A DNA stretch of 63,896 nt, counting the filler, from Dugesia japonica (Eukaryota), in the NCBI GenBank assembly GCA_001938525.1. It is 6 parts of 6 records of this genome, joined end to end, with 100 filler letters (N's around TTAATTAATTAA, not from the genome) between each part and the next. Parts side by side here need not be neighbours in the genome. Positions count along the whole stretch, not along the records: positions 23,281 to 33,734 come from MQRL01635365.1; positions 33,835 to 42,371 come from MQRL01578304.1; 4 more parts are not named here. One strand, given 5' to 3'. Numbering within the stretch: the stretch's first letter is position 1; each line of letters opens with the position of its first letter. The translations under genes and the position numbers were made by a program. Under the pieces are notes generated by a model. That model had not been told where the DNA came from. It made no database searches and saw nothing but the letters and a program-made list of their open reading frames with translations. This document shows, in pieces, positions 7,582 to 48,500 of the stretch.

Positions 7582-7764
7582 ATGGCCGGGGAATTAAAGA
7601 CGACCTTACGTTATATTCGGAAGCAAAGGATGGACGCACGCCTAAAGCAGTTGATAGCCCACCGATTGTCGAATGGTAAAATCGAACATCCCAACGAAAC
7701 CAATCTCCAGTGTTTCGTTGAGATGTTCCCACTAGATTGTAAAGTGGATATGGATGAGGAATAA
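7582..7764 (+). CDS. LTR cassette A, 60-aa protein of unknown function
   Basis: AG 2 nt before ATG, AATAAA at the stop; homolog at 31242-31424 shares IAH.L..G.IEHP.ETNL.CFVEMFPL. Confidence 0.7.
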   Translation: MAGELKTTLRYIRKQRMDARLKQLIAHRLSNGKIEHPNETNLQCFVEMFPLDCKVDMDEE

Positions 7765-7978
7765 ACACCCGCTCTAATTTATGGGCCAACAGTTCTTATG
7801 AAATAACCAAAAAAAAGAATATATTGTTTTTATTTGTGTTTAATTCTTATGAAATAAACTCTAAATATTGTTTTTAATCGTGAATAATTCTTAGGAGATA
7901 AATCCTAAATATTATTATTTTATACATTTTGGTCTTTAAATAAAACCTTNCTAGTTATTATTCTAGAATCAGCATCGA

Positions 7979-8406
7979 ATGGAATATAAGTGGGAAGTAA
8001 GCATTGACGTCNACTCGGGTAGAACGGTGTTTAAAAGTATCAAAACCCGTATAATCGCGACACTGGAGTTCTAGTAGAGCGCTCCAACATCTCTACTGAA
8101 CAAATAATAGACGAAAGGCGCTGGGATGCTACTGATAGGAGTGCATATTACAGTTGGTGTGGCCCTAGACGAGAAAGAGTGGCTTTTTCCCCAGCTCCAC
8201 TTTCTTTTGAGAGATCATCCGAGGTGCCTCAAGTCGAGCGCATATGGCATGATGGGCCTTCTTTAATCGACATCATCACAAACCGTCTACCCTCCACTAA
8301 CCAACTGACTTCGTTTATCCAGGATTATTTGTGGAGTACTCGTAATGGGGGGTCTAGCAGTAATATTGAAAATGCAGAAGAAGAAACCACAGTAGTTTCT
8401 ATGTAA
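7979..8406 (+). CDS. LTR cassette B, ~140-aa protein of unknown function
   Basis: Acceptor TTCTAG at 7961-7966, MEYKWEVSIDV...NPYNRDTGVLVERSN...SFIQDYLW; homolog at 31544-31945. Confidence 0.6.
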
Positions 8407-8565
8407 TGGGTTTAAGTAAAATAAATGTTTAACTGGGTGTTCGTGTCATCTGCCTTGCTGTTTTGTTGTCTATGAGACCATACTGTCTTCATTTATTAAA
8501 CTAAAAATATTCTAATACACANNNNNNNTGAGATCCTATTATTTTTTATTGTATTTGTATTTTAG

Positions 8566-8924
8566 TGCATTCATCCTTGAATAGATCGCAGGCCCCGAAT
8601 AAAAAACTACGCAAAACCAGTGAGGATATAGAGCTCACGTTGGATTTATATAGGCTCGCTAAACGGCGATGGGAGGCTGAGACGGCCGCAACTGAGGCCA
8701 AAATAAGGCACTATAAACGGAAATGTCTATCCTTTAAATCAGAAGTAGAAGCGACCCAGAATCAAGAGCGGGTGTGGAAATCCCAATTCGAATCCTTTAC
8801 TGACATCATCAAGTCTTATCAAGAACGTGAAAATAAATTAATAGAGAATATATTGAAATTGAAGACTGATATACCATTGGCCCTACTTTTGATTGATAAA
8901 GGTACCCAGATTAACCGTTCCTGA
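8566..8924 (+). CDS. LTR cassette C, ~119-aa coiled-coil protein with C-terminal LC8-type motif; no genomic ATG (AG|TG)
   Basis: Open frame from TTTTAG|TG CAT TCA to stop, AATAAA at 8955; homologs at 23281-23480 and 32091-32449. Confidence 0.7.
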
Positions 8925-9043
8925 GTTTTCGTGTTTCAATTTTTGATTGAATTGAATAAATTTGTTATTATTTGTATCTTCTCTAATCTACTTCTTCGAT
9001 TTTATTTATGGAGGTGCCTACTTAAACTGTAATTTTTCTTTAG

Positions 9044-9224
9044 TGCCACGAATTGTTAGATTTGTTAGGTAGATTTCCCAAAGCAGTATATAGCCGACCT
9101 GTCAAGCCAAATGGGAAACCCTGCTTGGGTACAGTGGGACGACAACGACGACATAGCCTCGTTCAATTTTTTGGAGTCCGACACAAACCAGTGGTTAGAT
9201 CCTGATGTATTGGAAGACCTATAA
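9044..9224 (+). pseudogene. LTR cassette D, internally deleted
   Basis: TTTAG|TG CCA CGA ATT start joined directly to KQYIADLSSQMGNPAWVQW...LEDL*; about 200 bp missing relative to 23595-23956. Confidence 0.7.
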
Positions 9225-9500
9225 TTTGTAATGTTAATAGATGTTTTTGATAACTTTTGGTTACTTTTTGATCTATGTCTATAAGGGAAATTAATGAACC
9301 CAAAGTAAAGGTGTACGAGTGTGAACCCCCCGTAAAGGTTGAAGGTCAACCGCTCTGCACTGAATATCCAACTGAGGGGCATTGGATTTAAATTCTTGAA
9401 CGGGTCTCCCTGAGAGCTGTTTTTCCCCAGCCTTTGTTTTCATTACCAACTCAGGTGGGACCTCAACAGAATTATCATTATAATCATATAATATTCAGTA

Positions 9501-10968
9501 TGTTGAGGTGAAACACTTGAGAATGGAAAATAAACCAGCGATTAGGTACACCTGGAATTTGAAAAGATGTCACAAGAAAAAAAACAAAGAACACAGACAA
9601 AAGAAGGAGTTAGACCAGTTACCGAAAGGAATAATAGTAAGAAAAAACCGAAATAAAGGAACTAAATATTGGAAAAGATCCGTAACCTATTGAGTTACAA
9701 AGGAAGAAAAGAAATGTTGGAAGAAAAAAATGTACTGAGAGAACAAAGAAAAAGAAAATAACGGAAGAAAATAATTCATTAAATAAAAGAAAGAAAGTCA
9801 AAGGAAATAATCTACTTACAGAAAATAAATTTAATGAATTAATTAGTGAAAGAAAACAGCAGAATTAAATTAATTTCGGATCAGAAAACAAAGAAATGAA
9901 TATTGAATTAATATTTTGGAAGAAAATAAAATAAATNATTTATTTATTTAAATAAAATAAATCGAACAAATTAAAACAATTTAATTTTAAAAGAAAATTA
10001 AATATTTTGTGAAATATGGGGGGAAAAAACAACTTCCCATGGTGGAAATATCAGCAAATAAGAGGATTATGGTCCAGAAAGAATCGGAAAATTCAAAAAT
10101 GTCAGTTAGAAAATCATAAAAAGATCCAGAAAGAAGTTATAAGGGTTTGAAGACTGACAAATAATTTTGGAATCTTAAAATAACCACCAATAAAAAGAAC
10201 TCATGTGACGTTCAAGCCAATGTAAACGTCTGAAAAATCGTACGATTCCAAATAACCAATGAAAGAAATGGGAGTGCGAAGAAAAACCGGTATAAATACC
10301 GGTGCAATTTTCACAAAAATAAACACTTTTTATCAAAGAAATACGGAAATTAAAACGAAATTAACACAAAAAGTGATTATTTATGCGATTTGATTGATGA
10401 TGCAATGATTTCCGACTGGATTGCTATGACTTATTATTATGAAGGACATCTGGAGTCACTATTGGACACGAATGAAATGGATGCTATGCTCTTGTGCTTG
10501 CTCCGGATCGGGATCCAGATCACGTTAGTTTTCTTAGTTATGTTAATTGTTAGGTTATTGTGCCCCAAGTAAAATTTAAAGCTAATAATATATTTTTCTC
10601 TTATAAATTCTTTTATTTTTCTGAATTGATAATATAGCTATTAAAATTATAATCAAATATAGTGATCAAATTAAAGAACACTCCACAAAGCGGAAAATTA
10701 TAGGTGGATAATTGAAAAGTCTAATTGTACTTAGTAAATCAGGTGAGTATCATGTATAAAGAACCCGAACCAAAGGGGAGCGAGTCTGTACTCGAGTTAC
10801 GAGTCAACGTCTTCATTCCGAAGATCTGGCTTTTTTGGAGGACGCCAGATTCAAACTCATCGCGGGGTTTTACCAGGTCAATTACCCTAGATTTAATTTT
10901 ACATAAAGTTCGAAACCCCTAGATTTAATATTTTAAGGAATTAACCCCCCTAGGGTAAAACCCCAACA
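9501..10968 (+). mobile_element. Short solo-LTR-like relative of the family (1468 bp)
   Basis: Termini TGTTGAGGTGAAACAC...AAAACCCCAACA, GTA on both flanks, CCAAT boxes, TATAAATA at 10291, subterminal GAACCC..AAAGG..CGAGT.TG..GTCAAC motif shared with the long copies. Confidence 0.7.
10405..10572 (+). CDS. 55-aa ORF with C-terminal hydrophobic helix inside the short LTR
   Basis: ATG about 110 nt downstream of the TATA box; ...IGIQITLVFLVMLIVRLLCPK*. Confidence 0.35.
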   Translation: MISDWIAMTYYYEGHLESLLDTNEMDAMLLCLLRIGIQITLVFLVMLIVRLLCPK

Positions 10969-19961: not shown

Positions 19962-21386
19962 AGTAGATGGTTTAGAGCGCATGGGGCCACCCTATCCCAC
20001 GGAGAAAATTTTTACTGGCCCTGATTTTTAGCGTTTTATTGGTTGCACACACGTTTTTAGGGTTTTTGATTGACCTAAATTTTAAGGTCAAGTGGCCCCG
20101 ATTTTAAACGTTTCGATTGCTTAAAATTTTTAAGGTCAAGGTTAACTGGCCTCAATTTTTGATGAATGTTCAGATGAAGTCATCTTAGAGTTTTAAGGTC
20201 AAGGTAATATTTTTTTTGTTTAAATTAAGTGAAATTAATGATTTTTGTTTGTTTAAATTAATTAATTTTTACGATTGGTTTAAATGTACGGATTTTTTGA
20301 GGTTTTAATTTAAATTAAGTTATATAATGATTTTTATGGATTTTTCATAGAAAATCGATGGTAAAACTTATTTTGTTTAAAATTTAAAATTTTGAAGTAT
20401 AAATTTTAATCGCTCTGGTCAATATTAACATTAGAGGTTTCTCAGACAATATTAATAATAATATATTTATTTATTTAATTGTATCGCTATTAAATCTTTA
20501 TCAATCTTAATGGTTCTCCTAAGCCCTGGTTTTGAGGTATAGGTCACTAACTTCTTTGCTGAATTACATATTCTCAAGTTAATTCGTTTCTTCAAATTTT
20601 CAACTGATTTGCCATACAAGCTGTTTTTCATCAGCTTATAGTAATTTTTATTCAATTCATTCACACTTTCAGCCTTTAATTTGGTGTTTTCATCGATGTA
20701 TTGCTTGAAAATATGATCTTGTGGAAATTTAACTGTCTTATGAACATTTGTAACTTGCACACCTAATTGCAAGTACATCTGCAGTAATCCCCAGTGAACT
20801 ACGTAATTGAACTTTGAATAATGAGTCAACATTAATTTCTTGACCGTGCATCCTGGAGCATATTGATATTCGGCTGCAATGGGTAAGTCACTAAGATAAT
20901 CATGAAGTTCATTAGAAATCTCAATGTCAACTTCTAGTGTGTATCCATATTGTAACGACTCGAGATCTGCATATTTACATTTTTCTAAAACTTCTTCTAA
21001 TCCACAATATACTCATTCAAAATCTTTGTATGGTAACTTCTGGCTCAAAGCCCAACCCTACAGATTATTTGTATCGATGTATAACAACTCTCTGTTTTCA
21101 TCTGAAATAACATGATGTTTGTTGACAAAGGTGAGCCCACCTCTAATCACACCTTCGAAAAAAGTGTACATGTCGTTATCAGTTAAAAGCTCGATGGGTT
21201 CATTTAAAGTCATCAAAGCAGATGCCCAGCTCATACCTGGAATGCCAAAGAAATTTAAGGGTTCAAGACGGTTGTGAGCTAATGACTTGGCTCGGAATTG
21301 CTGCAAAAAGTCAGCTTGGAGAAAGACGTCCAACTTCATGTACACTATGACGTAGTGCACTATCCATCTACTACTATCCATCTACT
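19962..21386 (-). mobile_element. Internally deleted Polinton/Maverick
   Basis: Termini AGTAGATGG...CCATCTACT, flanks GAGCAA/GAGCGA (6-bp TSD, 1 mismatch), pPolB fragment inside. Confidence 0.85.
20467..21345 (-). pseudogene. Protein-primed family B DNA polymerase fragment
   Basis: GVIRGGLT, LLYIDTNNL*GWALSQKLPY, YTLEVDIE, YYKLMKNSLYGKSVEN motifs with stops. Confidence 0.9.
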
Positions 21387-23280: not shown

Positions 23281-24203
23281 CGCACGACCAAGAAAGAATT
23301 TGGAAATCGCAGGTAGAGTCGTTCGCCAAGATCATCCGGTCCAGCCATGACCGTGAAAAAAAACTGGTCAAAGGTATCCTGCATCTTAAGGAAAGATCCT
23401 ACTTCGAACCTTTCATGGTTGATAAGAGCACACAGACAAAATCTATATCGCGTGACTCAACTTTCTGTTTCTGGAAATAAAAAATCGAGTGTTGTAATCT
23501 TTGCNTTAGCGTGTATNACCTAAATTTTGATTAGACGAGTTCGATATCGATAATATTAATTATTTCTTCCCTATTATTAATCTTAATTATTTAGTGCCAC
23601 GAATTGTATTTCCAACAAGTTTACGGAGGTGTCACCGAATTATGCGTCGCTAGTTGTTAGAAGGACATTTAAAACGTAAGACCAAACGGGCCCTTCTAAG
23701 ACATCTCACCCAGCGGGATCGATTAATAAAAAAATTAGATTTATTGGTTAAAAAACAGAATGATTTGGCTGCACAAACCAAACAAATGTTACAACGAAAG
23801 GTAGATTTCTTAAAGCAATATATAGCAGACCTGTCAAGCCAATTGGGAAACCCTGTCTGGGTACAGTGGAATGACAGTGATGACATAGCTGCGTTTGACT
23901 TTTTGGAGACTGACACAAACCAGTGGTTAGATCCTGGTGTGTTGGAAGACCTATAATTTGTAATGTTAATAGATATTTTTTGATAACTTTTGGCTAATTT
24001 TTTATCAATGTCTATAAGGGCAAATAATGAACCCAAATTAAAGGTGTACGAGTGTGAACCTCCCGTAAAGGTTAAAGGTCAACCACTCTGTACTGAATAT
24101 CCTACTGAGGGGAGTTGGATTTAAATTCTTGAACGGATCTCCCCGAGGGCTGTTTTTTCACAGCCCCTTGTTTTCTTTTACCAACTCAGGTGTGGCCCCA
24201 ACA
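23281..24203 (+). mobile_element. Gene-bearing giant LTR, copy 2 (3' part; cassette C end, cassette D with nonsense codon, terminal region)
   Basis: ...MVDKSTQTK..., ATTTAG|TG CCA CGA ATT at 23595, terminus GGCCCCAACA. Confidence 0.8.
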
Positions 24204-25248
24204 CAATGAAGCATTTATATATTTTGACGAAATTTATACAATAATTACTGAAATTGATGTATGATTTAATGAAGTTTGCTAGTATTTCATTGTAGTTGGT
24301 ATAAATTAATACATCTAAATTGGATCTATCATTTTATGATTACATTGATCAGTGTTTGGTAAAGTTTCTTTGGTAAACATAAATACCTATTACATTTTCT
24401 TTGTTGAACTTGTAATAAAAATTGAAATTAATCATACATACCCTTCTCAACCAGTTCTATGTAAATTTTTAAAGTCTTATATGATGTAATTATTGAATAA
24501 ATTGAATATATAGTAGTTGGTTGTATGAACGGTTTCATTTAGTGAATGGGTTTATTATGTATACTGATCATTGCTTTGTTATACTTGCATTTGCATTGCA
24601 GATATATTGCACATTGACTTATATTTTATGTAAATCTTTAGAAATTTTTATAGGTTTTTTCAATCAATATTTGTGGTCATAAAGAAGATCGATGTTAGTT
24701 CTCATTATTTTATTAGTGTCCGAAATATTTTCTTTCATCTTTGAACGAATAAGCATATTCTGCATTTCTATTTCTTCTTCCGTATTCACTTCTTCCTCTT
24801 CCATTTCAGTAATATTTAAGTGTTTGAGATCATAAATATCATTTTTTTATTAAAAGTACAAAGTTTTATAATTAATTAATGATTAAATGCGATTAAATGA
24901 TTAAATTTTATTGGACACAATCCATAATTTTATAGAATTTGATATATCTATCAATGAAATTTGTATGCATTTATGTTTTAATGAAATTGCTAGATCCATA
25001 TTTTAATCTAATTATGTATACTTGAATGAAATTGATGTATCTCCAAATGAAATTAAAGTATATTGATATAAAATTATTCATATTGTAATATCATTGTTGT
25101 ATATATGTGTAGAAAATTTTATATAAAAAATACTATTGGTAATGTCAACCAAAGACATTAAAAATAAATTTTAAATTAACAACATTTATTAAATTTAAAG
25201 ATTTATTCTTCTTCACTATAACCTTCAACAGGTTTTAATTAATAACTA

Positions 25249-26156
25249 TGTTGGGGTGAAACAACCAGTTATCTAAAAGGAAAAAGAAGACAGAAAATGA
25301 AATTTACAAAATAACACAAAAAGAGCCAAAAATAGAAACATCTGAAGAATAATTAAATCAAACGCAATCATGTTAATTAAAGAAAAAATCAAATTTATAT
25401 TATAAAAACAAACAAATTTGTTATTTCAAAATAATTAATTAGGAAAGAAATAGTAATTAATTTCATTGAAAAATAAAGGAAAATTAGACCAAAATCAGTT
25501 GTTCATGAACAATACCACTCTGGTTAATCCCAGAATGTTGAGGTAAGAAAAATTGAAAAAAAGTGTTATCTGGTCAATGGGATTTTGTAATTGGAAAACT
25601 TTATTATCATCAGAGGAACTATCACATGGGTTGGAAAATTGGGCCAATGAGGGTCCTAAAAACAAAAAAAAGAAAGCACCAAATCTCACCTGATGGTCTA
25701 AAAATAACGGCGGGTGGTGAAACTCTGCAAAAAATCTAAAAATTGGCACCAACGCCAATGAGAATCAAGGATTTCAAAAATATATATCCAATAGTAATGA
25801 TGCCGGGTTTCATCGGAAAACCATATAAAAGGCACAATGATTTAGTAGAAAAATAATAAAAAATTTAATTTTTCACCACAGCTCAAGTATTGTAGAACTA
25901 CCACTTGTGAGCAAATTACTTGAAGTAACCACGTATTAATTTTCAAGAAACTTGTTGGATTATTGGAATTAGGCCAAGTAACACTATCATTAGTTTGACC
26001 AGACTTAATTTTATAAAAAAGGAAATTAGAAAAGGAGTATCATCGATCAATTGTTGGGAATTCGTCTTCACCAAAAGAAATAGTCAAGCCGTTGCAGAAA
26101 TCCTATAGATTTTGATAAATTTAAAAAGTAATTTTGTTGTTATAATTTATATCATA
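25249..26156 (+). mobile_element. 5' part (U3-like) of a diverged LTR of the same family
   Basis: Starts TGTTGGGGTGAAACAACCAGT; patchy similarity to 28589-29150 (GGGCCAAT..TCCTAAAAA); TATAAAA near 25824. Confidence 0.65.
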
Positions 26157-26495
26157 CACGCTACTCCATTCCATTACCAACCTCCAGCTCCCCCACCAGT
26201 AGTTCAGGCCTTTATATATATATAATATATACCCATAATAAAATATATTATTACCGTAAATGAACTCTTTATTCTTTTCTATTTAAAAATGTTTTATTAA
26301 ATACCGATGATGAATGAGTAAAATGAGTGAATTTATTCATATTAGAGATGTCAATCCATGATAGATTATTATTAATTACCATTCCGCTTATTATTAAGGT
26401 TGAATATAAATGGTGAAAATTGAAGCCAAATAACAAGAAATTTATTTTTTCAACAAATATATTACCTACTTCGGGAATCCAATAATNTCTCAGCA

Positions 26496-27043
26496 ATGGA
26501 TGGATTGTATCTCGTCCAACAAACCAGAGATAAAGTTATCAAATGCACCACTTGCAAACAAGAAGCTCTATTACTGCAAGGAATAGAGAAATTACCAAGG
26601 AAAATATTCCATCACCCAAATTGCTCAAACCAATCAACGAGGAAGAAATACAAACAACAGCATGCAGAATCGAATGGAATATGTCACGTATCCGAATAGA
26701 AATGGCAGCTGAATTACAAATCAATAGACTGCATAATATCCTAAAGACAAGTCAGGAAAATATCAAGCAACTGATAAAACAAACAGTCGCTGAGAAAGGT
26801 ACTGAGTTAATCACGTCATACGAATTATACCAAAGATCATGTAAACTAGTAGAACCTCAAGTGAAATATGAGCAAGAATGGGCATTAATCGATAATAATT
26901 GTGTTATCTGCTTAGAAGGAATCATCGAGGTTGTATTCCTGCCATGCGGACATTTTAAGACCTGCTATAAGTGCGCTGTAAATCTAAATGAATGCCTTGT
27001 GTGCCGGAAGGTAATCGAACGTAGGGTATTGGGAATAAAATAA
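26496..27043 (+). pseudogene. IAP-like gene (degenerate BIR-like Zn motif + C-terminal C3HC4 RING), one frameshift near 26625; true start probably upstream
   Basis: AMDGLYL...DKVIKCTTC-x18-HHPNC then, in the shifted frame, CVICLEGIIEVVFLPCGHFKTCYKCAVNLNECLVCRKVI. Confidence 0.75.
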
Positions 27044-27156
27044 ACTTAAAATAAACTTTTAGTAAATAAACTTAAAATGTAAATAATGTATAATTATCTA
27101 TATATAACTGTCAAAATAATGGTATAACAAAATAACCACTTTCTCTAATTTTAGAA

Positions 27157-28328
27157 ATGAACAACGAAAACTTAATCACCCATCTCCGCAACGAGATTCA
27201 AATATTGCAAATTCAAACTCGAACCCTTACCACTATATCTGAAGTCCTAAAATGGAAACTGGAGTCCAAAATAGATGCACTGTCCAACTTTCAATTACAA
27301 AAATACAACAGTGANNNNNNNNNNNNNNNNNNNNNNNNNNNNNNNNNNNNNNNNNNNNNNNNNNNNNNNNNNNNNNNNNNNNNNNNNNNNNNNNNATAAA
27401 AAGCAACATCGATGCCAACAGAGCAAAAATCAACGCCATTAAACAGGCTCGGATTTGGAAAAGTAAATACGAGGAAGTTGAACCCAAAAGAAAAGAGGTA
27501 GAGAACCAATTATCCATCGAACAAAAAAATAGTCAAATCCTTAGGATGGAATTGTTCAACATGCAGTTTGAGAAAAGTCATCTCGCTACTGAAAATCAAC
27601 TTCTGATAAGTTTGGCAAATCGAGAGGGGGTGAAGGCTGGCATCGATAAACTATCTCTGGAATTCGAGAGCATAATTCAGGATTATCAACAAAAAAATGA
27701 GTTTTTACAACAATACATAGAAGCCTTGGAACAGGAGATTCTTGAACTAAGTACACTCTGCCGAGAAAAAGAAAATGAGATCGCAGAAAAACAACAACAC
27801 TTAATTGAAACATTCTCCGAAATTAAGAAACTTCTGAAATCTTATACAATTCGCCAACCTATCTCCCACCCAATAATGTTAGCAACTCCTCTCCAGCCAA
27901 GTGGTCTAACCACCTTCAATTCTCCCAAATCAACCTTAAACCATGCTGCTCCTGAATGGCAACCAACAATCTCAGGCCTATCAAGACAATCCACCCCATT
28001 AATATTTCAAGATCTCATAGTAGCTCCAGTTAAAACTAGGATACCCGAGTGGATAAATAAAATAATCGATTAGGCTTCCTACATAACTCCAACATCCTCC
28101 ACAATTCCCACCCAACATAGAAAACCGGTCCCATTGGTAATTCAAGAACCTCAAAGCATTTGTCTCAGTTCTGTAAAACTCAGTCAGATACCCAGTAAAA
28201 CCTCAGTAATCGACAACAATCAATTTAAAAGAAACCTATCCCAATCAATAGTAACCGAAATGCTACGGAAATATGGCTCTGATATACAACCGAACAACCA
28301 GAACAACCTAGTAGATGAAGTCGACTAG
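27157..28328 (+). pseudogene. Long coiled-coil protein with P/S/T-rich tail (gap inside; one in-frame TAG at 28071-28073)
   Basis: CTAAT..TTTTAG|AA ATG; ORFs 27546-28073 and 28134-28328 are in one frame; AATAAA at 28349. Confidence 0.6.
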
Positions 28329-28549
28329 AACGATCTAGGACCGATGTAAATAAACTGTAAATAATAACTAAATGATTCAATGAATTAACAAACTCTGAAT
28401 GTATCAACGTACACTGTATTTAAATGTATATCGTAGAACAAGTTTTATGTATGCGTCATGGGATAACATGTAATGACCTTAAAATTTTGCCTTGTCTGTT
28501 AATTTTCATTAGGGTTGAGGGGTTTTCTGCAACAGGGNGGAATTACGGC

Positions 28550-28588
28550 AAATTCCGGGACGGAATTTAAACAAGACGGAGAGCGATT
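28550..28588 (+). promoter_or_regulatory. Gypsy-type 3' hairpin and polypurine tract upstream of a 3' LTR
   Basis: AAATTCCG-GGA-CGGAATTT perfect hairpin, then AAGACGGAGAG, then TGTTGGGG. Confidence 0.65.
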
Positions 28589-31241
28589 TGTTGGGGTGAA
28601 ACACCCAGTAGAATGAGAAATCAAAGGGAGTCAATAAACATTCACCATCAAAACAAAAATAGTGTCACGGGGAGGAAGTAGAAAATAAAACAAGAAGAAT
28701 CGGGATCACATTGATAAACGAGAATAGAAAGACTCAAAGGATTAATGGTATTAATTATATAATCGGAAGAATTAATAAAATTAATAAAGAAAATGGCTAA
28801 CGAAAAAGAAAATAATTACAAAAAATAACAATTAATTTAAACGAAAAAAATTAATTAAAATTGAGACAAAATCCGTTTTAACCGAATAACTTCGCTCAAG
28901 GAAATCGGAAAGAATTCGGACAAAAAAATATGAAAAGAAAACAACAAGATGCATTGAAAATGCTAAAAGACGAAAACTTACCACCATTCCGAGGGTTGCT
29001 GCAGGGTCCTGAAGATCGGGCCAATAAGAATCCTAAAAATAAAAATAAAACAAAGACACAATTTTCAGGTGTCTCTCTAAAAATAGCTGCCAATTGTGGC
29101 ACCAAAACTTGAAGAAAATTGTAAAAATAGTTGTTTTTTCTGCTAAAAACAAGGGTCCTTTTATAGGATTTGACTTACACTCCGACTTCTTCTAGATTTG
29201 CTGATTATTTTTAGAGCAGCTTTTTTTTTGATTTCATTGGTTCCATCGTCAATTTTCTACAACTCACGAAAACAAATTTTACACCGATCCTCAACATACA
29301 ACTCAAAAGAATTTACTAATCAATTACCAGACTCGCATTAAGTTACAAGAAAATATTATCTGTCAAGAAGGATTCACTTTCAGGAGGAAACTTTTTAGTA
29401 ATTTCTAAATAATTGAATATCAATTAATCTTATTTCAAGGATAAGTGAAGTAATCAGCAGAACCTAGACAAGAAAAATTAGTTCTCCGAGGAAACCGTTC
29501 TTATCAGTTACTACCGATTGCCAGCACTGTTGCAGAGACCCTCTAACTAATATTGAAAAGTAAAATATTATTTTTATTTATGTTAAAAGTTGTAATATTA
29601 TCAAATATGGAATATTATGTAGCTTAATAAATGATGTCATGATAAAAAATCTTAATTTGTTATATTTTCTCCTTTAAGATTGTTGATCTATAATAGATAA
29701 ATGATTAATCATTTTGTATGCAAATTAATTAAATAGAAAATTCCTTGAAAAATCAGTCTTAATTAATTAATTGATTTTGGAGTTAAAGTAGCTAATAGAA
29801 ATGTCATGAATTTACCTTACTTAAAAATAAAATTTTATTTTGCCCAAAGTGAAAGAACAGAAAATATGCACTATGAATAAGTGCAATACTTTTTCGATAA
29901 TCTTATAACAACCACCGATTAGAAATTTCATGAAAAGAAGAAGTTTTCAATGTTATTTATTTCTTATGTTAAAATCCCATATTCATTAGTTAACTGATTA
30001 ACTGCATCAATTAGATAGGCTACTGTTAACTTGGAGTGGGAATAGAATGACGAATAAACATCTCTGACTGTTAAATGATATTATACAGTAGATTCCGTGT
30101 TAGTTTTCATTAAATTAAAGGAAAAAGAGTTAATATTTAAATATGTTAAAGCTTAGTTAAACTGAGATCGGAACACACATATATATATATTAAAAAAATA
30201 CATGAACTAACCGATTCATCCATCCTGTTTTCATATTAATAATTTTTATAACAACACAAAATATAATATCCAAAATTGTAACTCAAGATAAATAAAACTC
30301 CAACAATTTATTTAGCAAAATTTATTGAACGATATTTACCTATTTCGATATTTAGCCATGATCATAAATCCGCAGGTTGTGATGATAGATGGCGGCGAAC
30401 GTGCTTAACTCAGGTTCTGACCGACTGTGTTTTCTGACATGGAATGGCCACAAGTAGTGCAGTAGAATGAGAATCCCTATCGCATTTTCCAATTTTCTAA
30501 AAGACAGTAAGCCATCACCTAAAATTATGACTGAAAAGTGATACTATTAGACAATGCTTGTGTTAATGCTTACTCTAACCAGACATACACACTCGAGAAT
30601 AATGACACACAACCCGACACTATTGCAAATCAAATCAATCCGTTAGTAAGGGGGATAATCACCAAGCAACGGTGATGCGTAAAAGTTTAAAAGTAAAAAG
30701 ATATATAAAAATACAAATTTTATAATTATTATAATTAATGCGATTTATAACCTTTAATGGTTCAAATCATCATTATTACAACTAGCAGTAACGGCCTTAA
30801 TTTTTTTATATGCAATAAACACCATATAACCCACATTACTATTAGTAATTTATCTAGAGCAACGCCACTCCCCTGACATAATATTCTATTAAATAGCGCT
30901 TTAAGATTATGATATTTATTTACCACAATGGTGCCATTCCTAGTGTCAAAATTAATATTTTTGGTTGTTACACACTTCGGTAATTAATTTTTCTCTAAGA
31001 TATTATTATGGCCAGAATAATTCGGTTTCTGTTGATTAATGTCGTGGTATTACTTAGTAGAATTTTTGCCAGTTATGCCATCCCAATTGATTTTAGTACA
31101 ATCAAAATTAATATCCTTCCCTTAAGAGTTATCCTGTTAATACTGTATACCCCGCAGGGTTATCAAGAGTCAGTGTCTATTATTCAGCTTAGGGGATTAA
31201 GTTATCAATTTAAGATGGTGGTTAATGATTTCATCTTTAGC

Positions 31242-31424
31242 ATGCCAGACAAATTATATCATACCCTGCGTTGGATTGACAAGCAGCGACGCCTCAGTCG
31301 GACGAAGCAGCCAATAGCTCACCTACTGATCAAAGGGGAAATAGAGCATCCAGACGAAACGAACCTGAGTTGCTTTGTAGAAATGTTTCCCTTAATGACA
31401 GAAACCGGTTTAGACGCAGAATGA
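31242..31424 (+). CDS. LTR cassette A, 60 aa
   Basis: CTTTAG|C ATG; MPDKLYHTLRWIDKQR...GEIEHPDETNLSCFVEMFPL; AATAAA at 31453. Confidence 0.7.
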   Translation: MPDKLYHTLRWIDKQRRLSRTKQPIAHLLIKGEIEHPDETNLSCFVEMFPLMTETGLDAE

Positions 31425-31543
31425 TTCGCGTTGTTAGTAGTGTTGTCATGAAAATAAATTATATGCGCTATCTTGTCGACGTTTTATAATTGTTTATGGA
31501 AATTTTGGTTTTATTCTAATCATTCTCATACTTTAATTAGGAG

Positions 31544-31945
31544 ATGGAATCTATTTGGGAATGCATAGTGGATTGACGCACCCGTAGAATAATTTTCCGG
31601 CGGCACCACAATCCCTACAATCGAGATGCCGGGATCTTAGTAGATAGATCAAATCTACCCCCCATTGAAGCAGCCGTTGCTCGTATCCAGAGCTTTGGAG
31701 AACGACTTAACTATCGCCAGTGGAATGGTCCTGAGCGTAACCACGCTACTCCATTCCATTACCAATCTCCAGCTCCCCCACCAGTAGTTCAGGCCTTCAT
31801 AGCTAATCTGCTCTGGGGCGTTAGGGAACCTTCCGGGGTGGAGGATGCGGAAAATACAGCTCCCCTGATACTACAAATCCCGACTCTTGATGTTATCCTG
31901 ATTTCAAATTTTGTGTTTCTTTTAATAAATAAGTGTCTTAAGTAA
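31544..31945 (+). pseudogene. LTR cassette B (one in-frame TGA)
   Basis: CTAAT...TTAATTAG|GAG ATG; MESIWECIVD*RTRRIIFRRHHNPYNRDAGILVDRSN...AFIANLLW. Confidence 0.65.
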
Positions 31946-32090
31946 TATTAACATACTCTTTAATCCATTGAGAAAATTGTCTTTAATAGTGTTATTCCAT
32001 GTTTTATGTTTTAAGTAAAATTGAGTAGATATTAGTAAATCAGTCATCAAGTCGATGAAGGGAAATGATTTTTATGATATTTTCTTTTAG

Positions 32091-32449
32091 TGCATTCTTC
32101 GTTAAATCGCCCCCCAGCTCCAACCAAGAAAATCAGAGACACCAGTGAGGACCGCGAAATGACGTGGGACCTCTACTGACTGGCCAAACGACGTTGGGAG
32201 GCGGAAGTGGCTAATGCGAATAGTAAAGTCCTCCGTTATAAGAAAAAGTGTATTCTTTTTAAAAAGGAAGCGGAGGCCTCCCATTTACAGGAGCGCACTT
32301 GGAAAAAACAAGTGAAATCTTTCTCAGAGATTATCCGGTCCGGCCATGACCGAGAAAATAAACTGGTTAACGATATTTTGATTCTCTGGGAGAAAATCCC
32401 ACTCGAGCCGCTAATGGTCGACAAAAGTACTCAGACGAGCCGCTCTTAA
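32091..32449 (+). pseudogene. LTR cassette C (frameshift + TGA), ends MVDKSTQTSRS
   Basis: TTTTAG|TG CAT TCT TCG TTA AAT CGC; aligns to 8566-8924. Confidence 0.7.
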
Positions 32450-32568
32450 CTTGATATTTCATTATTGTTTGAATTAATAAAATATTCATTTGTATGAGAT
32501 TCTTCTGTTACTTGTTTTCTCGAGGCATAGATGAGGTATTCATTAATTTAATTGTACTTTTCCTTTAG

Positions 32569-32945
32569 TGTCTCGTATCGTGTTTCCGACTAGTTTGAGG
32601 AGGTGCCACCGTATTCTGCGCCGTCTATTATTAGAGCGACACTTAAAACGCAAATCAGAACAAGCTCTTCTTAAGCACCTTGACCAGAGAAATCAGCTCA
32701 TAAAAAAATTGGATTTGGTAGTCNNNNNNNNNNNNNNNNNNNNNNNNNNNNNNAAAGCCCTAGAGGCAGAGAACAGGAAGTTGCTGTTAAGAAAAATAGA
32801 CTTCCTAAAACAATACATCTCTGATCTTTCCCGGCAGATTGGGAACTCCGCTTGGATTCATTGGGGCGATGATGAAGATATCACCGCCTTCAATTTTACA
32901 GTAGATGACCCAGATCAATGTGCTAGTGTGCTAAACGATCTATAA
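32569..32945 (+). CDS. LTR cassette D, ~125-aa basic/coiled-coil protein; no genomic ATG (AG|TG)
   Basis: CTTTAG|TG TCT CGT ATC; RIVFPTSLRRCHRI...KIDFLKQYISDLS.Q.GN..W..W.D; AATAAA after the stop. Confidence 0.7.
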
Positions 32946-35336
32946 ATGTTATAATAATAAATGTTCCGAGGAGTATTGGTTTAATTTTTGTGTAATTAAG
33001 GGAAGTTTTTGAACCAAAATACAAAGGTTTATGGGTGTGCACCTCCCATTAAGAGTGAGGTCAACCACCATGAACTGAATACCTACCCTAGGGGCGGTAG
33101 GGTAAATTCTTGAAAGAGTTCCCCTGCGGGCTGTTTTTCCCCAGCCGCATTAATTTTTCATTCAGCTCAGGTGGGACACCAACACTACTATTAATTGGAT
33201 CGGAAGTTTTGATTGGGTTACTCGCGCTTCTGAGACTATCACACTACAGACATTCCCAGAATATCCAAAATATATATTTTGGTGGCAAATACCCACAGAG
33301 ATAAGCACAATTAAACCTACTACTAACATAATAACATCAACCCCCATAAAGTTAAATATAACGATTAACTCGAGTTTAAACGACAATCATAAGATAAAAA
33401 TTAATACAGAAAGTACATATTTAAAATACATTATAAGAAATCGAAATTCAGACCTAAATAAATATTATAAAAATTATCAATACTATAAGAATAAGATTCT
33501 ACAACTTTGGGGCACTACAAAAAATCCAGAACCTGAAAGCAAAATAATAAAAAGAATTTCCTTATAATTTTGGGAACAGGTGTAATACTCTTCCTCGTAG
33601 CGTTTATAGTATCAATTTATCAAATTCACAAACGCTATAATTGGAAGAGACAGCGTTATCGGAGTCGCAATACCCCAAACTCACCGGACTATGTTCAATG
33701 GACACAAGTATAAACACTTTCCAAAATGTATATTNNNNNNNNNNNNNNNNNNNNNNNNNNNNNNNNNNNNNNNNNNNNTTAATTAATTAANNNNNNNNNN
33801 NNNNNNNNNNNNNNNNNNNNNNNNNNNNNNNNNNTTAGTGAATCGGTTATTAAGTTCTTATTGGTGTAAATGTTTGAAATATTTATATAAAGTTTAATTT
33901 GATAAAAACAATTCAATGTTAAATTGTTATAAGCAGATTTTCATATATTTTCTGGAAATATATATAAATTGAGAAAATTTGGATATTAATAAAATAGACA
34001 AACGAAAATTAAATATTATTTTTTTTTAAAAATAGCTTTTGCTGTTTTTTATGAAATATCTCCATCTTATGTCATTTGCGGATTTACAAGTAAATTTTCA
34101 GAAGTTTCGAAAGTGTTTGTCTGTTGAACCAATAGAAATCAGTTTATTTCACAATTATATTATCAGTCGAAATATTTTGTAATTACATTAGTATTCATCT
34201 TTTGGAAAACAAGTTAGCTATTTAAATTTTTATCTATATATTTATATTTATTATATTAAATTTAAGTACTTCGCTTACTTTTTAAGTCGCTATTTATTTT
34301 TCTTAATAATTTTTATTTTATATTATTTATTATAATTTATTAATTTTCAAGTTTTGCATTTATCGTTCAACTATTGGAAAAATAAAAATAAATTGCATAA
34401 CTAAAAAAATTTCTAAATTTTATTTTTTTAATATTATTTAATTATCTTTTTAAAAGAAATGTTTAAAAAATAAAAATTATTTTTAAAATTTCTAAAAGTA
34501 TATATAAATTTTGATTTTCAGAAATTATAGAAATTCTTTTTAAGAAAATTTAATATTAATAAGATTTAGTTATTAATAATAAACAATAAATAACCGAAAA
34601 TTAAAACGTAAAAACTTTTTTCCAAAATTAAATAAATGAATTAAATGACATATAACAAAAAAATCAGAAAAAAATTTTTTCTGTTATTGTAATACATTGG
34701 GAATATAAATCAAAATTTTATTTCTTTGATATATTCAATTAACAGGCAATTATCTCAGCATTATTTAAATAAAGCGTCTAATATGAAATTTGGCTGTACT
34801 TGAAATTCTGAGCAGAATTTTTAATAAATTATCAATTATCTTTTGGTATCAAAAGGAAAAATTAATAAAATTCTAAAATTTACATTTTATAAAATTTATT
34901 GGATTTCAATTGTCTTTAATTTTAAAAAATAATTAAATTAACTAAATGATTTNNNNNNNNNNNNNNNNNNNNNNNNNNNNNNNNNNNNNNNNNNNNNNNN
35001 NNNNNNNNNNNNNNNNNNNNNNNNNNNNNNNNNNNNNNNNNNNNNNNNNNNNNNNNNNNNNNNNNNNNNNNNNNNNNNNNNNNNNNNNNNNNNNNNNNNN
35101 NNNNNNNNNNNNNNNNNNNNNNNNNNNNNNNNNNNNNNNNNNNNNNNNNNNNNNNNNNNNNNNNNNNNNNNNNNNNNNNNNNNNNNNNNNNNNNNNNNNN
35201 NNNNNNNNNNNNNNNNNNNNNNNNNNNNNNNNNNNATCATTCTGTTATTTATATTCACCATATTTAAAAATGCAATTCGTGTGTAATTTATTAGAATACA
35301 ATTTTATTGAATTATTTTTAGTTCTGGATACTAATT

Positions 35337-43915: not shown

Positions 43916-46900
43916 TTTTCGTACTTCGTATTTCTCATGTTTTTTATGTATTGTAATTTGGTGGAATTGAAACCAATACAAGAAATCAAAACAGCTAAGG
44001 AAATGTTTGCAGAGATCTATGTGTACATATATGTTCTCACATTTACTATTGAAGAAATTCGACAAGTTAGATGTTTTCATTTTTCTAAATTATTATGGAT
44101 ATTGTTTAATATAAATAACATTACTTTAAATATTTTTTAATTTTCATAAGTAGACTTTTTGAAATTTCTAACACAAATAAGATAGGAACGTTGAAAATTA
44201 TTTTCTTTCGTCTTTATTAAATAGTATATATTGTATAGTGTATCAGAAATTACAAATTCTACACTGGATTTTCGTTTCTAAGTTAAATGACAATGTTTTA
44301 AATGATTTCTAAAATATCTTTTGGAAATATAATTCATTTAATTATTCTTTCTAATATTATCAAATGTTATAATTATAAATATACTAATGGCTAGGTTGAT
44401 TTTGTTGTTTATGAAGGAATATGTGATTATTAAAATAAATATAACTCTAAATATGTGTAACTGTAAAAGGAAATATTTTTTTTGATATTTTGTAATTAAT
44501 TCTAACTAGAAAGGTGAAATAATTTTGGTAGAATAATTTTCTCCCAATATCTAATGAAAATTCATTTCTTCCAATTTCTGTATATCACATTATATAAATT
44601 AATTTATTGTGATATATCCTTTTATAATTGCAATCATTGAGAGAATAATTGTTGGACATAACCATTGATCGTTTTTCAGATTTCATTAAAATAAAATCTT
44701 CAATTAAAATTTGTTTTTTTGGTTTTTGATAACATTTCTATATGAAGACATATATCCTATTAAAGCATGTTTTACATGACTTTTAAATATTTTTAATTTT
44801 ATTTTTATACGCTTATTGGTTTACCATATAAATTTTTCAATTTTACAAAAATTTTTGGATTGTCCGACTTGGTCAAATTAGTATTTTTTTAATATAATTT
44901 TCTATTTTTTATATATTATTGATATAGTTGATGTGAATTTTCTCTTCATGTTTTTATTTTTACTGCTTTTCTTCTACTTTCTGATTTTTAAATTTCTTAT
45001 TAATTTATATATTCGATGTGTTTTGCTTTAATTTTTGTATCGGCATATTTATATATTTGTTCCGATTTTATTTGTACATCTGTTATTTGTGCAATAATAA
45101 TTTTTTTATTTAATAATATTTACTGTTAAATAATCTTATTTGTACATATCTTTATGTATATTTTCATGTGATTACAAAATTTCGATGTCGATTTTATTTT
45201 TTCATTTAAATTTTCTCAATCGAGGTAAATAAATATATGTATATATAAAGTTGCTTTTTTCTTATAAAAATGAAACTGAACCACGTTATACACAAGCAGC
45301 AAATGCTAAGTTTATTTTTAGCTTATTTTATCTTATTTTAATTAAATTCAAATTTTTTCATATTTTTTGTTTTGTTATTAGATACTTGATCAAGAGCTAA
45401 CTAGTATAAAATATAAATTCCAAGAATACTTTTCTCGAATCTGGAACAAATTGGACATAGTTATTATCGCTTTTTTTATTTCAAGTACCGTTACGAGATT
45501 TACAATTCCTAGTGAAAATTTCATGTTATGTCGCTGTTTATTTGCAATGACATTGAGCATGTTCTTTCTCAGATCAATGCAGTTTTATTTTGTAAACAAA
45601 TCTATTGGACCTAAAGTTATCATGATTCGAGATATGGTTGAGTTATAATTTTTCTCAAAAATTTATTTAGATTATTCTTTTTTATAGCTTCGAGATATTT
45701 TGTTTTTTTTAAGCATATTTGTGATTTTTATTTTGGCATATGGAACTTTATCTCATTCTTTGAGATTTCCCAATAGCAAATTGGACTTAGCACTTTTTAA
45801 GGATATTGCCTACATTCCGTATTTTCAGACATATGGAGAATTAATGCTGGACCAATTTGAAAGTATTTATCTTAAATAAATTTTTTATATTTAAATAATT
45901 TCTGATATTGAATTTGTTATTGAATTTGTTATTGAATTTGTTATTGAATTTGTTATTGAATTTTTTATTGAATTGAATTTGTAAAGGACCGTTTTGAGTT
46001 TGTAAATTTTATCTCAAATTCTGTTGTAAGTAATAATGACGACTTTATGGTGTCCTTTGATATTTCTAGCTTATTCACTATTGTTCCTTTGCTGGAAACA
46101 ATAGATCTTTGTTGTGATATATAGGAAGTAATGTGAGTGATCAATCTAAAATGAATATATCTGCTTTCGTTAATTTTTCACTTTTCCAACGACTAATGTT
46201 TCGTTTCTTTTAACAATGAATTATATTAACAGATTGATGGAGTAGCTATGGGTTCTCTTTTAGCTCCGAAATTAGCGTGGATTTTCTTGAATAAGCATGA
46301 AGAACGAATGAACTTACTTACCAAAAATTTGTTGACGATGTTTTTCTTATTTTTGTTAATCCTGAACATGTTCTGCTTTCCCAGAGTTTTATGAATTCGT
46401 TATATCCTAATATTCGGTTTACTGTAGAGGAAGAAAGAAATGGTATTTTGCCTTTTTTGGATCAACGCATTATGAGACTGAAATCTACAGAAAGAAAAGT
46501 GATACTGGCTTGTATGTTACCCCAAATAATTTTTGTAATCCTGCTTATAAAAAGAACATGATAAAGTATTTAATGCTTTGTTCATGGTCATTGTTCTCAA
46601 TTTATTCCAAATCCATTAAAAGTATTGAACATTTATTTAAGTTACTGCAAGCAAATGGATATAGTAAACAATTTTTAAGTTCATTGACTTCGTTGACAAT
46701 TGACAAAATATTGGTTGGTAATAATATTGGTTTTGATAAAAAGATTGAAACTGTGTTGAATAATCCTAAACCCTATAGCACTTTATCTAATTGGATTGGG
46801 CCATTTGTTTTATCGATCGCTGAAGGTTTTAAAAAGTTAAAGAATTCGATTTTGAAAGCTGCTAAGGATTTTCTTTTATTGAAAATTGTTTCTAATATTG

Positions 46901-48456
46901 TTAAACGCTTTGTTAATAAATCCCATACACCAATTGGTTTGTGTTCTAACCTTGTTCATCAAATTATATGTAATGTATGTGAGGCCACATACATCAAAGA
47001 GACTGCCCGTCATCTCTGTACAAGGGTTCAAGAGCATAATAGTTTTGGTGGTGGTAGTAATATTGCTGAGCATAAAAATAAAAATATAAGTAATTGTAAT
47101 GCGAATGCCGAAATTTTAAAAGTTTGTCTAAGTAATTTTAAAATGATTGGGAGAGAGTTTTGTGGGAGGGGTTAATGATTAATTTAGGATTAATTAAGCA
47201 TTAATTAATTACGCATTAATTTATAGACAGCTCTTTCGACTAAATTGATTAAATTTTTTTAGATACAAAAATATTTTTTAATTTTTAAAATTTTAATATA
47301 TTTTCATGTTTTTATAAGTTCTGTATTTTATTTTTCAAAATAATTTTCAATTTTATTATTTCATAGGCTTTGAAAATTTTTTAATACACTTTAAAATTAA
47401 AAAATTTTAAATATTTTCGAAAAACGTTCTTTTTTTAGTCTCCTTGATTTTTATAGGTTTAAAATAGGAATTTTAATAAAATATTATTATAGAAGATATT
47501 TTTTTAGAAAATAAATAAATTTTTTAATTGAAAAATTGTTTAAATTTATAAAATTAGGAATTATAGCAAATCTTATATTCAGTATAATTGCTTGAATCTT
47601 TGTTTAAATAATACAGACTGAGTAAACTCATCTCTTCTATTTTTCTGATGAAAAATTCGTCAAAATAGATAATAATAAAATTTTATTTTAAATGGCGTTA
47701 CTTATTTTATGTTAAACATTTNNNNNNNNNNNNNNNNNNNNNNNNNNNNNNNNNNNNNNNNNNNNNNNNNNNNNNNNNNNNNNNNNNNNNNNNNNNNNNN
47801 NNNNNNNNNNNNNNNNNNNNNNNNNNNNNNNNNNNNNNNNNNNNNNNNNNNNNNNNNNNNNNNNNNNNNNATTATTATTAATATTATTATTANNNNNNNN
47901 NNNNNNNNNNNNNNNNNNNNNNNNNNNNNNNNNNNNNNNNNNNNNNNNNNNNNNNNNNNNNNNNNNNNNNNNNNNNNNNNNNNNNNNNNNNNNNNNNNNN
48001 NNNNNNNNNNNNNNNNNNNNNNNNNNNNNNNNNNNNNNNNNNNNNNNNNNNNNNNNNNNNNNNNGCAGTATTTCTGTTATTGACAAATGTGTTGTTGATT
48101 AATTTGTTAATTGCAATGTTTGGGTGAGTGAAAAGTTTTCAGTGTTTATGTACTATGATGAATTTTACTAAAATAATATTACCTTATTANNNNNNNNNNN
48201 NNNNNNNNNNNNNNNNNNNNNNNNNNNNNNNNNNNNNNNNNNNNNNNNNNNNNNNNNNNNNNNNNNNNNNNNNNNNNNNNNNNNNNNNNNNNNNNNNNNN
48301 NNNNNNNNNNNNNNNNNNNNNNNNNNNNNNNNNNNNNNNNNNNNNNNNNNNNNNNNNNNNNNNNNNNNNNNNNNNNNNNNNNNNNNNNNNNNNNNNNNNN
48401 NNNNNNNNNNNNNNNNNNNNNNNNNNNNNNNNNNNNNNNNNNNNNNNNNNNNNNNN

Positions 48457-48500
<44 letters not shown>

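Follow-up and report, generated by a model that had tools for sequence, protein, structure and literature searches.

A putative giant long terminal repeat of Dugesia japonica containing four small conserved genes

Introduction

Long terminal repeats (LTRs) are usually regarded as non-coding control regions. Accessory genes that overlap an LTR include nef, bet, and MMTV sag, and retroviral accessory genes sit before or in U3 and share the single LTR poly(A) site. Unlike these, the four small open reading frames (ORFs A-D) described here stand downstream of the likely transcription start site and have one poly(A) signal each. Complex retroviruses and fish foamy-like ERVs combine an internal promoter with a number of accessory genes under selection in or close to the 3' LTR (PMC5210030), and our locus is similar in this respect.

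Burro/GYPSM1 elements are described as giant Gypsy-like planarian elements with apoptosis and ubiquitin cargo (PMC6431247). Six GAG-ENV-POL errantiviruses from S. mediterranea are listed without an LTR or primer site (PMC13524379). The locus resembles these elements in its AT-rich animal host and its putative very large terminal repeat. The descriptions consulted report additional polyprotein domains and an accessory ORF lying upstream (PMC6431247; PMC13524379), whereas here the genes would lie inside the LTR.

The MDG1 group (412, Mdg1, Blood, and Stalker) has sORF1 and sORF2 between the LTR and gag and a premature poly(A) site (PMC11952523). Our locus likewise has small ORFs downstream of a putative LTR promoter with premature poly(A) signals, and MDG1 sORF1, a predicted helix-turn-helix nuclear protein, can be likened by description to A, a predicted three-helix protein with a weak helix-turn-helix lead. 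MDG1 elements have two unspliced ORFs ahead of gag, whereas here four ORFs stand inside the repeat, each with an acceptor and a poly(A) signal (PMC11952523). In the Drosophila springer subclade, the start codon of env is completed by splicing, as we propose for C and D; there the codon of one env gene is split between AU and G, whereas here that of two small genes is likely split between A and TG (10.1101/2023.08.03.551782).

Termini and Identity of the 4.6-kb Unit

The window analysed here is a stretch of 63,896 nucleotides, filler included, joined from six parts of the D. japonica assembly GCA_001938525.1. The unit and its control elements are as follows:

28589..33184, plus strand: LTR-like unit, TGTTGG...CCAACA, 4.6 kb, termini compared with other copies
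28539..28588, plus strand: hairpin(s) and purine-rich tract, likely a polypurine tract (PPT), abutting the unit, read in sequence
29135..29245, minus strand: CCAAT-TATA promoter segment, inverted relative to sister LTR starts, from motif score against shuffles

The original prediction of a 4.6-kb TG...CA unit with a hairpin and PPT in front was borne out: TGTTGG at 28589 and CCAACA at 33184 form the two ends, and both other elements lie upstream, the tract being purine-rich but not pure. The ends carry the short inverted repeat of an LTR, and TGTTG...CAACA is common to four 3' ends and three 5' starts in the window. A polypurine tract, if impure, directly 5' of the unit is the arrangement of a 3' LTR. 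RNA reads from relatives match 28550-28605 and diverge on either side (16-22 reads per run in three runs of one study); the hairpin/purine junction at the unit start is kept in relatives. Both unit ends and ORF C are also contained in very deep DNA contigs, with high repeat depth.

A Pol II promoter lies within the repeat at the motif level, inverted in 28589-33184: segment 29135-29245 scores z 4.6 on the minus strand (0 of 300 shuffles) and z -1.0 on the plus strand. CCAAT-TATA occurs in all three LTR-like starts at a similar distance inside each, and here it stands ~575 bp from the 5' end, with A-D all downstream. One X17 contig has an opposite-strand joint (29133/29396) at the promoter inversion.

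These sequence features indicate that the unit is quite probably the LTR of an LTR retroelement. We also favour, with less confidence, its earlier assignment to a Burro-type Gypsy element; the twin LTR, primer site, and gag-pol that would complete it were not seen. No twin LTR occurs in the window, and only one further start precedes the unit on its piece, with 61% identity. Neither the ORF lists nor inspection by eye revealed gag-pol in the window, and none of four 3' ends showed a primer-binding site by eye, none being expected after solo or 3' LTRs. The piece carrying the unit stops 550 bp past the unit end. Rfam (24-34 kb) and a tRNA scan gave no match.

LTR elements usually make target duplications of 4-6 bp, and those found here are shorter, 3 bp in both testable insertions (4 bp counting the last A). 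The 28589-33184 unit has no duplication of its own on either side; the 3-bp match is between its end at 33184 and an LTR-like start at 25249, so that it flanks the entire 7.9 kb of 25249-33184, whose two starts are not identical. Together with the unseen gag-pol, such duplications would suit a unit that is the gene-bearing end of some other kind of element, one whose termini form a short inverted repeat and whose movement depends on a transposase or integrase supplied from another locus. We consider this unlikely, because the inverted match of the termini extends over 6-8 bases only, the conserved purine tract abuts the unit start, the promoter lies at a similar distance in three starts, and units of 1.5 and 4.6 kb have common termini, as in LTR families.

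Four Gene Cassettes

The 3' half of the putative LTR contains the following features:

31242..31424, plus strand: ORF A, 60 residues, intact, ATG at 31242, predicted three-helix protein (model pLDDT 73)
31544..31945, plus strand: ORF B, ~110-130 residues, ATG at 31544, one in-frame stop, 3' end uncertain
32091..32449, plus strand: ORF C, basic coiled coil, exon from 32091, no ATG, one in-frame stop
32417..32437, plus strand: VDKSTQT, a motif of LC8/DYNLL type in the tail of ORF C, from motif match
32569..32945, plus strand: ORF D, basic helix/coiled coil with an aromatic-acidic tail, exon from 32569, no ATG

Each ORF is preceded by a T-rich AG acceptor, and AATAAA stands at 31453 (A), 31924 (B), 32476 (C), and 32956 (D). 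A series of four acceptor-ORF-stop-AATAAA cassettes had been proposed; the cassettes are real, but in-frame stops interrupt B (31574-31576) and C (32177-32179), and the AATAAA of B precedes the stop of its frame. Gaps from one signal to the next acceptor measure 87, 166, and 92 nt, in agreement with the ~80-160 nt stated originally. AATAAA lies within -8 to +40 nt of the stop in 9 of the 12 cassettes examined in the window, compared with 14% of random positions; that of D is not kept in the copies ending at 9468 and 24203. Neither C nor D begins with an ATG, and in all five C/D copies TG directly follows the acceptor, against a background of 23% third-position G. In the 9468 copy, the 118 codons of C do not include a single Met.

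Proposed Expression of the Four Genes

The reading we prefer, and hold with some reservation, is a giant Gypsy/errantivirus-type LTR with four selected small genes, each expressed singly by leader splicing. A transcript would start at the CCAAT-TATA promoter, its short leader exon would be joined to any one of the four acceptors, and the RNA would be cut at the poly(A) signal of the chosen gene, so that four small mRNAs result. In the case of C and D, the first base of the start codon would come from the leader (A before TG). The splicing step itself, the joining of a leader to the A-D acceptors, appears somewhat likelier than its alternatives taken together. Genomic RNA would need to read through all four signals, so some A-D proteins may regulate that switch or the host cell.

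Spliced, polyadenylated expression of A-D, as originally envisaged, is not supported so far. RNA reads at the unit derive only from diverged relatives; five raw RNA runs contain no splice joint among those listed, with almost no reads covering the acceptors, and no poly(A) end falls at any of the four genes in the RNA reads examined. The acceptors of C and D are traversed without splicing in three X17 contigs, although X17 may be DNA. No donor for the leader was located: a 42-nt GT..AG skip (29398-29439, two X4 contigs) was considered and rejected, being one of 15 listed joints and lying at the inversion edge.

The unspliced contigs would also suit an LTR whose genes are made from read-through RNA or small internal promoters, with non-ATG starts or short local exons for C and D and weak poly(A) signals. 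The small ORFs of MDG1 elements are expressed without splicing (PMC11952523), and an acceptor followed by TG also gives an in-frame GTG. T-rich acceptors and AATAAA nevertheless recur around every gene across lineages with saturated silent sites, and we regard this possibility as improbable.

Still less probable is an operon resolved by spliced-leader trans-splicing, as in flatworms and nematodes, for which the 87-166 nt gaps are suitably short, flatworm operon candidates being defined at 300 bp or less (PMC12582326). Flatworm spliced leaders end in AUG (PMC12582326). Translation from such an AUG would miss the frame of both genes, meeting a stop after 4 codons at each of the two C acceptors and running in a different frame from D. 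Neither gene has an ATG of its own, and one C copy lacks Met altogether. TG after the acceptor in C and D therefore favours cis-splicing from a leader, and the "operon-like" label first given to the array is so far not supported in the spliced-leader sense. No leader-like loose end was found at any acceptor among those listed, in reads that almost never cover them. For A or B, spliced-leader trans-splicing could still hold.

Conservation of A-D

Between copies, amino-acid identity of A, C, and D is 50-67% despite saturated synonymous sites, with pS 0.83-0.97 and pN 0.19-0.49 in seven saturated copy pairs. A is 58% identical to its counterpart in the copy at 7582; pN/pS is 0.59 for B (36% identity), 0.24-0.34 for C (50-67% identity), and 0.20-0.24 for D. 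The one unsaturated pair, of D, gives dN 0.08 and dS 0.54 (dN/dS ~0.15), and identity by codon position is, e.g., 0.66/0.79/0.32 in C and 0.68/0.87/0.37 in D. As judged from these comparisons, A-D are almost certainly genes kept by purifying selection across diverged lineages, in accordance with the original expectation of coding sequence rather than a dN/dS of about 1. That they are chance frames or passively carried host fragments is scarcely credible: the 28589-33184 copy is broken and without expression in the runs examined, but the codon-position pattern in C and D refutes chance, and A-D are intron-less, with no host homologue found in the protein searches with A and C.

No recognised family had been assigned to the four proteins, which Pfam (all below cut-off) and homology searches confirmed. 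A word-index protein search with A and C found no homologue, PDB sequences gave no match for A or D, and no viral contig matched A or C. A search of 1.84 billion proteins returned a single unnamed homologue of A, P0119 (47% identity), an intact, gap-free protein of 60 residues from a public run. Foldseek with the A model returned nothing at E 0.001 in PDB or viral models. An atlas search gave a weak HTH_36 lead for A (0.86) and likened C to generic coiled coils with low recognition. The only metagenome match to D, L001, was rejected as a bacterial coiled coil.

ORF C has a motif of the [D/S]KxTQT type bound by LC8/DYNLL (PMC3078936) adjoining its coiled coil, as in LC8 clients. The D, K, T, and Q are invariant in all three C copies, and C tails account for three of the four six-frame motif matches in the window. 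The predicted form of C is a coiled-coil dimer that host LC8 would clamp.

Upstream Block and Other Copies

Upstream of the unit and elsewhere in the window we identified:

25249..25870, plus strand: sister LTR-like start with plus-strand CCAAT-TATA (TATA ~25824), from alignment and motif
26496..27043, plus strand: acceptor-ORF-AATAAA gene for an IAP-type RING finger, frameshifted (PF13920, E 3e-14)
27157..28328, plus strand: acceptor-ORF-AATAAA gene for a long coiled-coil protein, with an N gap and one stop, from sequence
7582..9468, plus strand: diverged copy sharing the 3' end and containing A, B, C, and a portion of D, from sequence comparison
23281..24203, plus strand: diverged copy sharing the 3' end and containing D and the last part of C, from sequence comparison
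9501..10968, plus strand: short unit of 1.47 kb that shares the termini and promoter motifs, with a 3-bp target duplication, and one 55-residue membrane ORF, from sequence comparison

The sister start is 61.5% identical to 28679-29128 over 460 nt (E 1e-22). The RING matches that of cIAP/XIAP (E 1e-9), which fits the apoptosis and ubiquitin accessory genes reported for Burro (PMC6431247); Pfam gave no family for the coiled-coil gene. Tentatively, 25249-33184 could be a 7.9-kb, two-promoter, six-gene LTR. Such LTRs might be self-contained multi-gene units resembling adenovirus late genes, with one promoter, a leader joined to alternative terminal exons, splice-built start codons, and a separate poly(A) site for each gene, and might grow by adding promoter-plus-genes blocks.

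The same gene order had been claimed for the copies ending at 9468 and 24203. It holds for A-D in the former, although ~190 nt of D are missing, B carries a frameshift, and some parts occur twice on either side of N gaps. Of the latter, only D and the 3' half of C are present, since the piece that carries it starts at 23281, behind a spacer. D of the 28589-33184 unit contains an N gap. With stops in B and C and an inverted promoter, this damaged copy cannot show that solo LTRs stay expressible.

Implications

In the literature searched, the original Burro paper and its supplements, which may show these ORFs, being outside its scope, we found no earlier description of a gene-bearing LTR. An LTR with four selected genes raises the question of whether genomic RNA passes four stop signals in a regulated manner, as in complex retroviruses. 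Gene content inside the repeat would account for the great length of these LTRs, and annotation could have overlooked solo LTRs as protein-coding loci. If so, they might scatter a cassette that encodes, among others, an LC8 client and an IAP-type RING protein across the host genome in very many copies. The LC8 motif offers a first testable function for one of the proteins, C.

As minor observations, the 42-nt skip at 29398-29439 resembles an intron of host size, with an upstream exon that ends in A. The ArgRS of the host is of animal type on a long branch, outside the parasitic flatworms in a quick tree without resolution.

Selected Gene Cassettes in a Likely Giant LTR

The selected four-gene cassette is real and resides in a likely giant LTR. 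It falls on the stretch 23,281–33,734, one of six pieces that make up the window, with N-flanked spacers between them. As the original prediction of a TG...CA unit stated, the repeat opens with TGTTGG at 28,589 and closes with CCAACA at 33,184, and both a hairpin and a purine tract precede its start. The four small genes in its 3′ half (A at 31,242, B at 31,544, C at 32,091 and D at 32,569) lie at the predicted coordinates. Similar 3′ ends are found at 9,468 and 24,203 (z scores of 20 and 16 for the last 200 nt against shuffles), and similar 5′ ends at 9,501 and 25,249. AATAAA closely follows the stop codon in nine of the 12 cassettes examined, compared with 14% of random positions, the exceptions being B of the 28,589–33,184 copy and D of the copies ending at 9,468 and 24,203.

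Genes A–D are real. In seven of the eight copy-to-copy comparisons, silent sites are saturated (pS 0.83–0.97) with pN well below (0.19–0.49), and the eighth, unsaturated pair gave a dN of 0.08 against a dS of 0.54, bearing out selection by the dN/dS check proposed earlier. The alignments were protein-guided, and B is the least favoured (36% identity, pN/pS 0.59).

Identity of the Unit

The junction of purine tract and start is kept in diverged relatives (16–22 reads per run in three runs of one study), and a CCAAT-TATA promoter is present in all three starts. Read depth, which is not a copy number, reaches 22,000–44,000 at both unit ends and in C versus 36–75 mid-unit. Because of the termini, the conserved junction, the promoters and this depth, the unit is likely a giant LTR, as originally proposed. 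Within the window, in ORF lists and by eye, we saw neither a twin of the unit nor gag-pol near it, and inspection by eye showed no primer site after any of the four 3′ ends.

The short unit at 9,501–10,968 and the span 25,249–33,184 each have a 3-bp flanking duplication, the apparent length of target duplications here. For the second of these, chance may account for the match, at up to about one in four, because all four 3′ flanks (at 9,468, 10,968, 24,203 and 33,184) open with G/C, A/T, A, a triplet possibly reflecting target preference. The short unit sits 32 bp past the end of the 9,468 copy, with termini and promoter motifs as in the large unit, a different 3′ part and an ORF at ~10,405–10,572 (55 residues, one membrane helix).

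The block upstream of the unit contains, in order:
25,249–25,870: sister LTR-like start, 61% like the unit's 5′ part, promoter in forward orientation
next: IAP-type RING gene, built like the A–D cassettes
next: coiled-coil gene, also built like A–D
before 28,589: hairpin and purine tract

In other copies, contig joints connect portions of this block, none of them end to end. The span 25,249–33,184 is either an integrated 7.9-kb unit that comprises six genes and has two promoters, or two nested elements fused by deletion; the right flank, a broken, repeated membrane-protein gene, fits the latter. A 60-bp piece at 26,157–26,216 is 97% identical to 31,742–31,801 in B and is likely a local templated insertion, because it is missing from the contigs of other copies.

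Damage in the 28,589–33,184 Copy

In this copy, which is damaged, in-frame stops interrupt both B and C; contigs of sequencing run X4 over these sites mostly or wholly lack them. About 575 bp from the unit start, a CCAAT-TATA block matches the sister promoters solely as the reverse complement (0 of 300 shuffles when the target is 160 nt, but no significance when it is widened). One contig from run X17, which may be DNA, has an opposite-strand joint at this block, and two X4 contigs show the orientation near 29,397 as in this copy. Two X4 contigs skip a 42-nt GT..AG segment at 29,398–29,439, which resembles a 43-nt host intron in length.

Proteins A–D

As in the original prediction, no family was recognised for A–D by Pfam, PDB, word-index, Atlas or fold searches (for B, Pfam alone). 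The profile of A had one match among 1.84 billion proteins, a gap-free 60-residue homologue on a 1-kb contig from a public run, whose source organism may be the same as the host. Modeling of A gave three helices, with a best pLDDT of 73 and 50–56 in the four other models. C and D, both basic, resemble coiled coils. Two copies share the C tail VDKSTQT, and the remaining one has IDKGTQI; PMC3078936 gives a consensus for LC8 and a value of 0.07 µM for a peptide with the sequence VDKSTQT. By motif match, the tail is a candidate LC8-binding motif: three of the four LC8-type matches in six frames of the window are C tails, and 54,321 residues of ArgRS proteins contain none.

Expression and Splicing

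Because A–D lie downstream of the likely transcription start site, they would occupy the genomic RNA leader and both LTRs of a full element. TG directly follows the acceptor in all five C and D copies, and neither gene has a Met start. A cis-spliced leader ending in A would be compatible with all four genes; its putative donor was not found. A flatworm spliced leader ending in AUG, as described in PMC12582326, would be out of frame at C and D.

Relatives of the unit are transcribed at a low level. At 88% likeness, 10, 84 and 11 reads from three runs matched, each only partly; at 80%, 322, 272 and 349 did, nearly all less than 95% alike, in the core of C, at the ends of the unit and in its flanks. 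The RNA check suggested earlier thus found transcription and did not confirm leader splicing: for the part of each run that was read, about a quarter or less, neither a joint within raw reads nor a poly(A) end at A–D was listed. Three contigs run across the acceptors without splicing, but the run they come from may be DNA.

Comparison with Known Systems

As far as the consulted parts of these sources go, some features are shared with Burro (PMC6431247) and its planarian expression (PMC8532177, PMC11410931), planarian errantiviruses (PMC13524379), MDG1 small ORFs (PMC11952523), springer env (bioRxiv 2023.08.03.551782), fish foamy-like ERVs (PMC5210030) and plant extra ORFs (PMC7264820). Those parts describe no array of genes within an LTR. 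Supplements to the first description of Burro may bear on novelty.

Other Features of the Window

5,549–7,304 and 8,043–8,238: near-identical duplications across N gaps, both likely artefacts of assembly in the 9,468 copy
12,534–14,300: host arginyl-tRNA synthetase gene, ~60% to many animals, long branch; the host is an animal, and the tree of this protein does not show it to be a planarian
20,467–21,381 (−): Polinton-like DNA polymerase B fragments (PF03175)
24,204–24,830 (−): decayed ORF with cysteines, matched by relatives' RNA reads
33,185–33,710: broken membrane-protein gene (ectodomain, hydrophobic helix, basic tail), a genome repeat found in relatives' RNA reads
~45,000–52,000 (+): exons, recognised by eye, of what we take to be a TRPM-like ion channel gene
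~60,600–63,000 (+): on another piece, decayed ordinary Gypsy-like element, protease and RT motifs by eye
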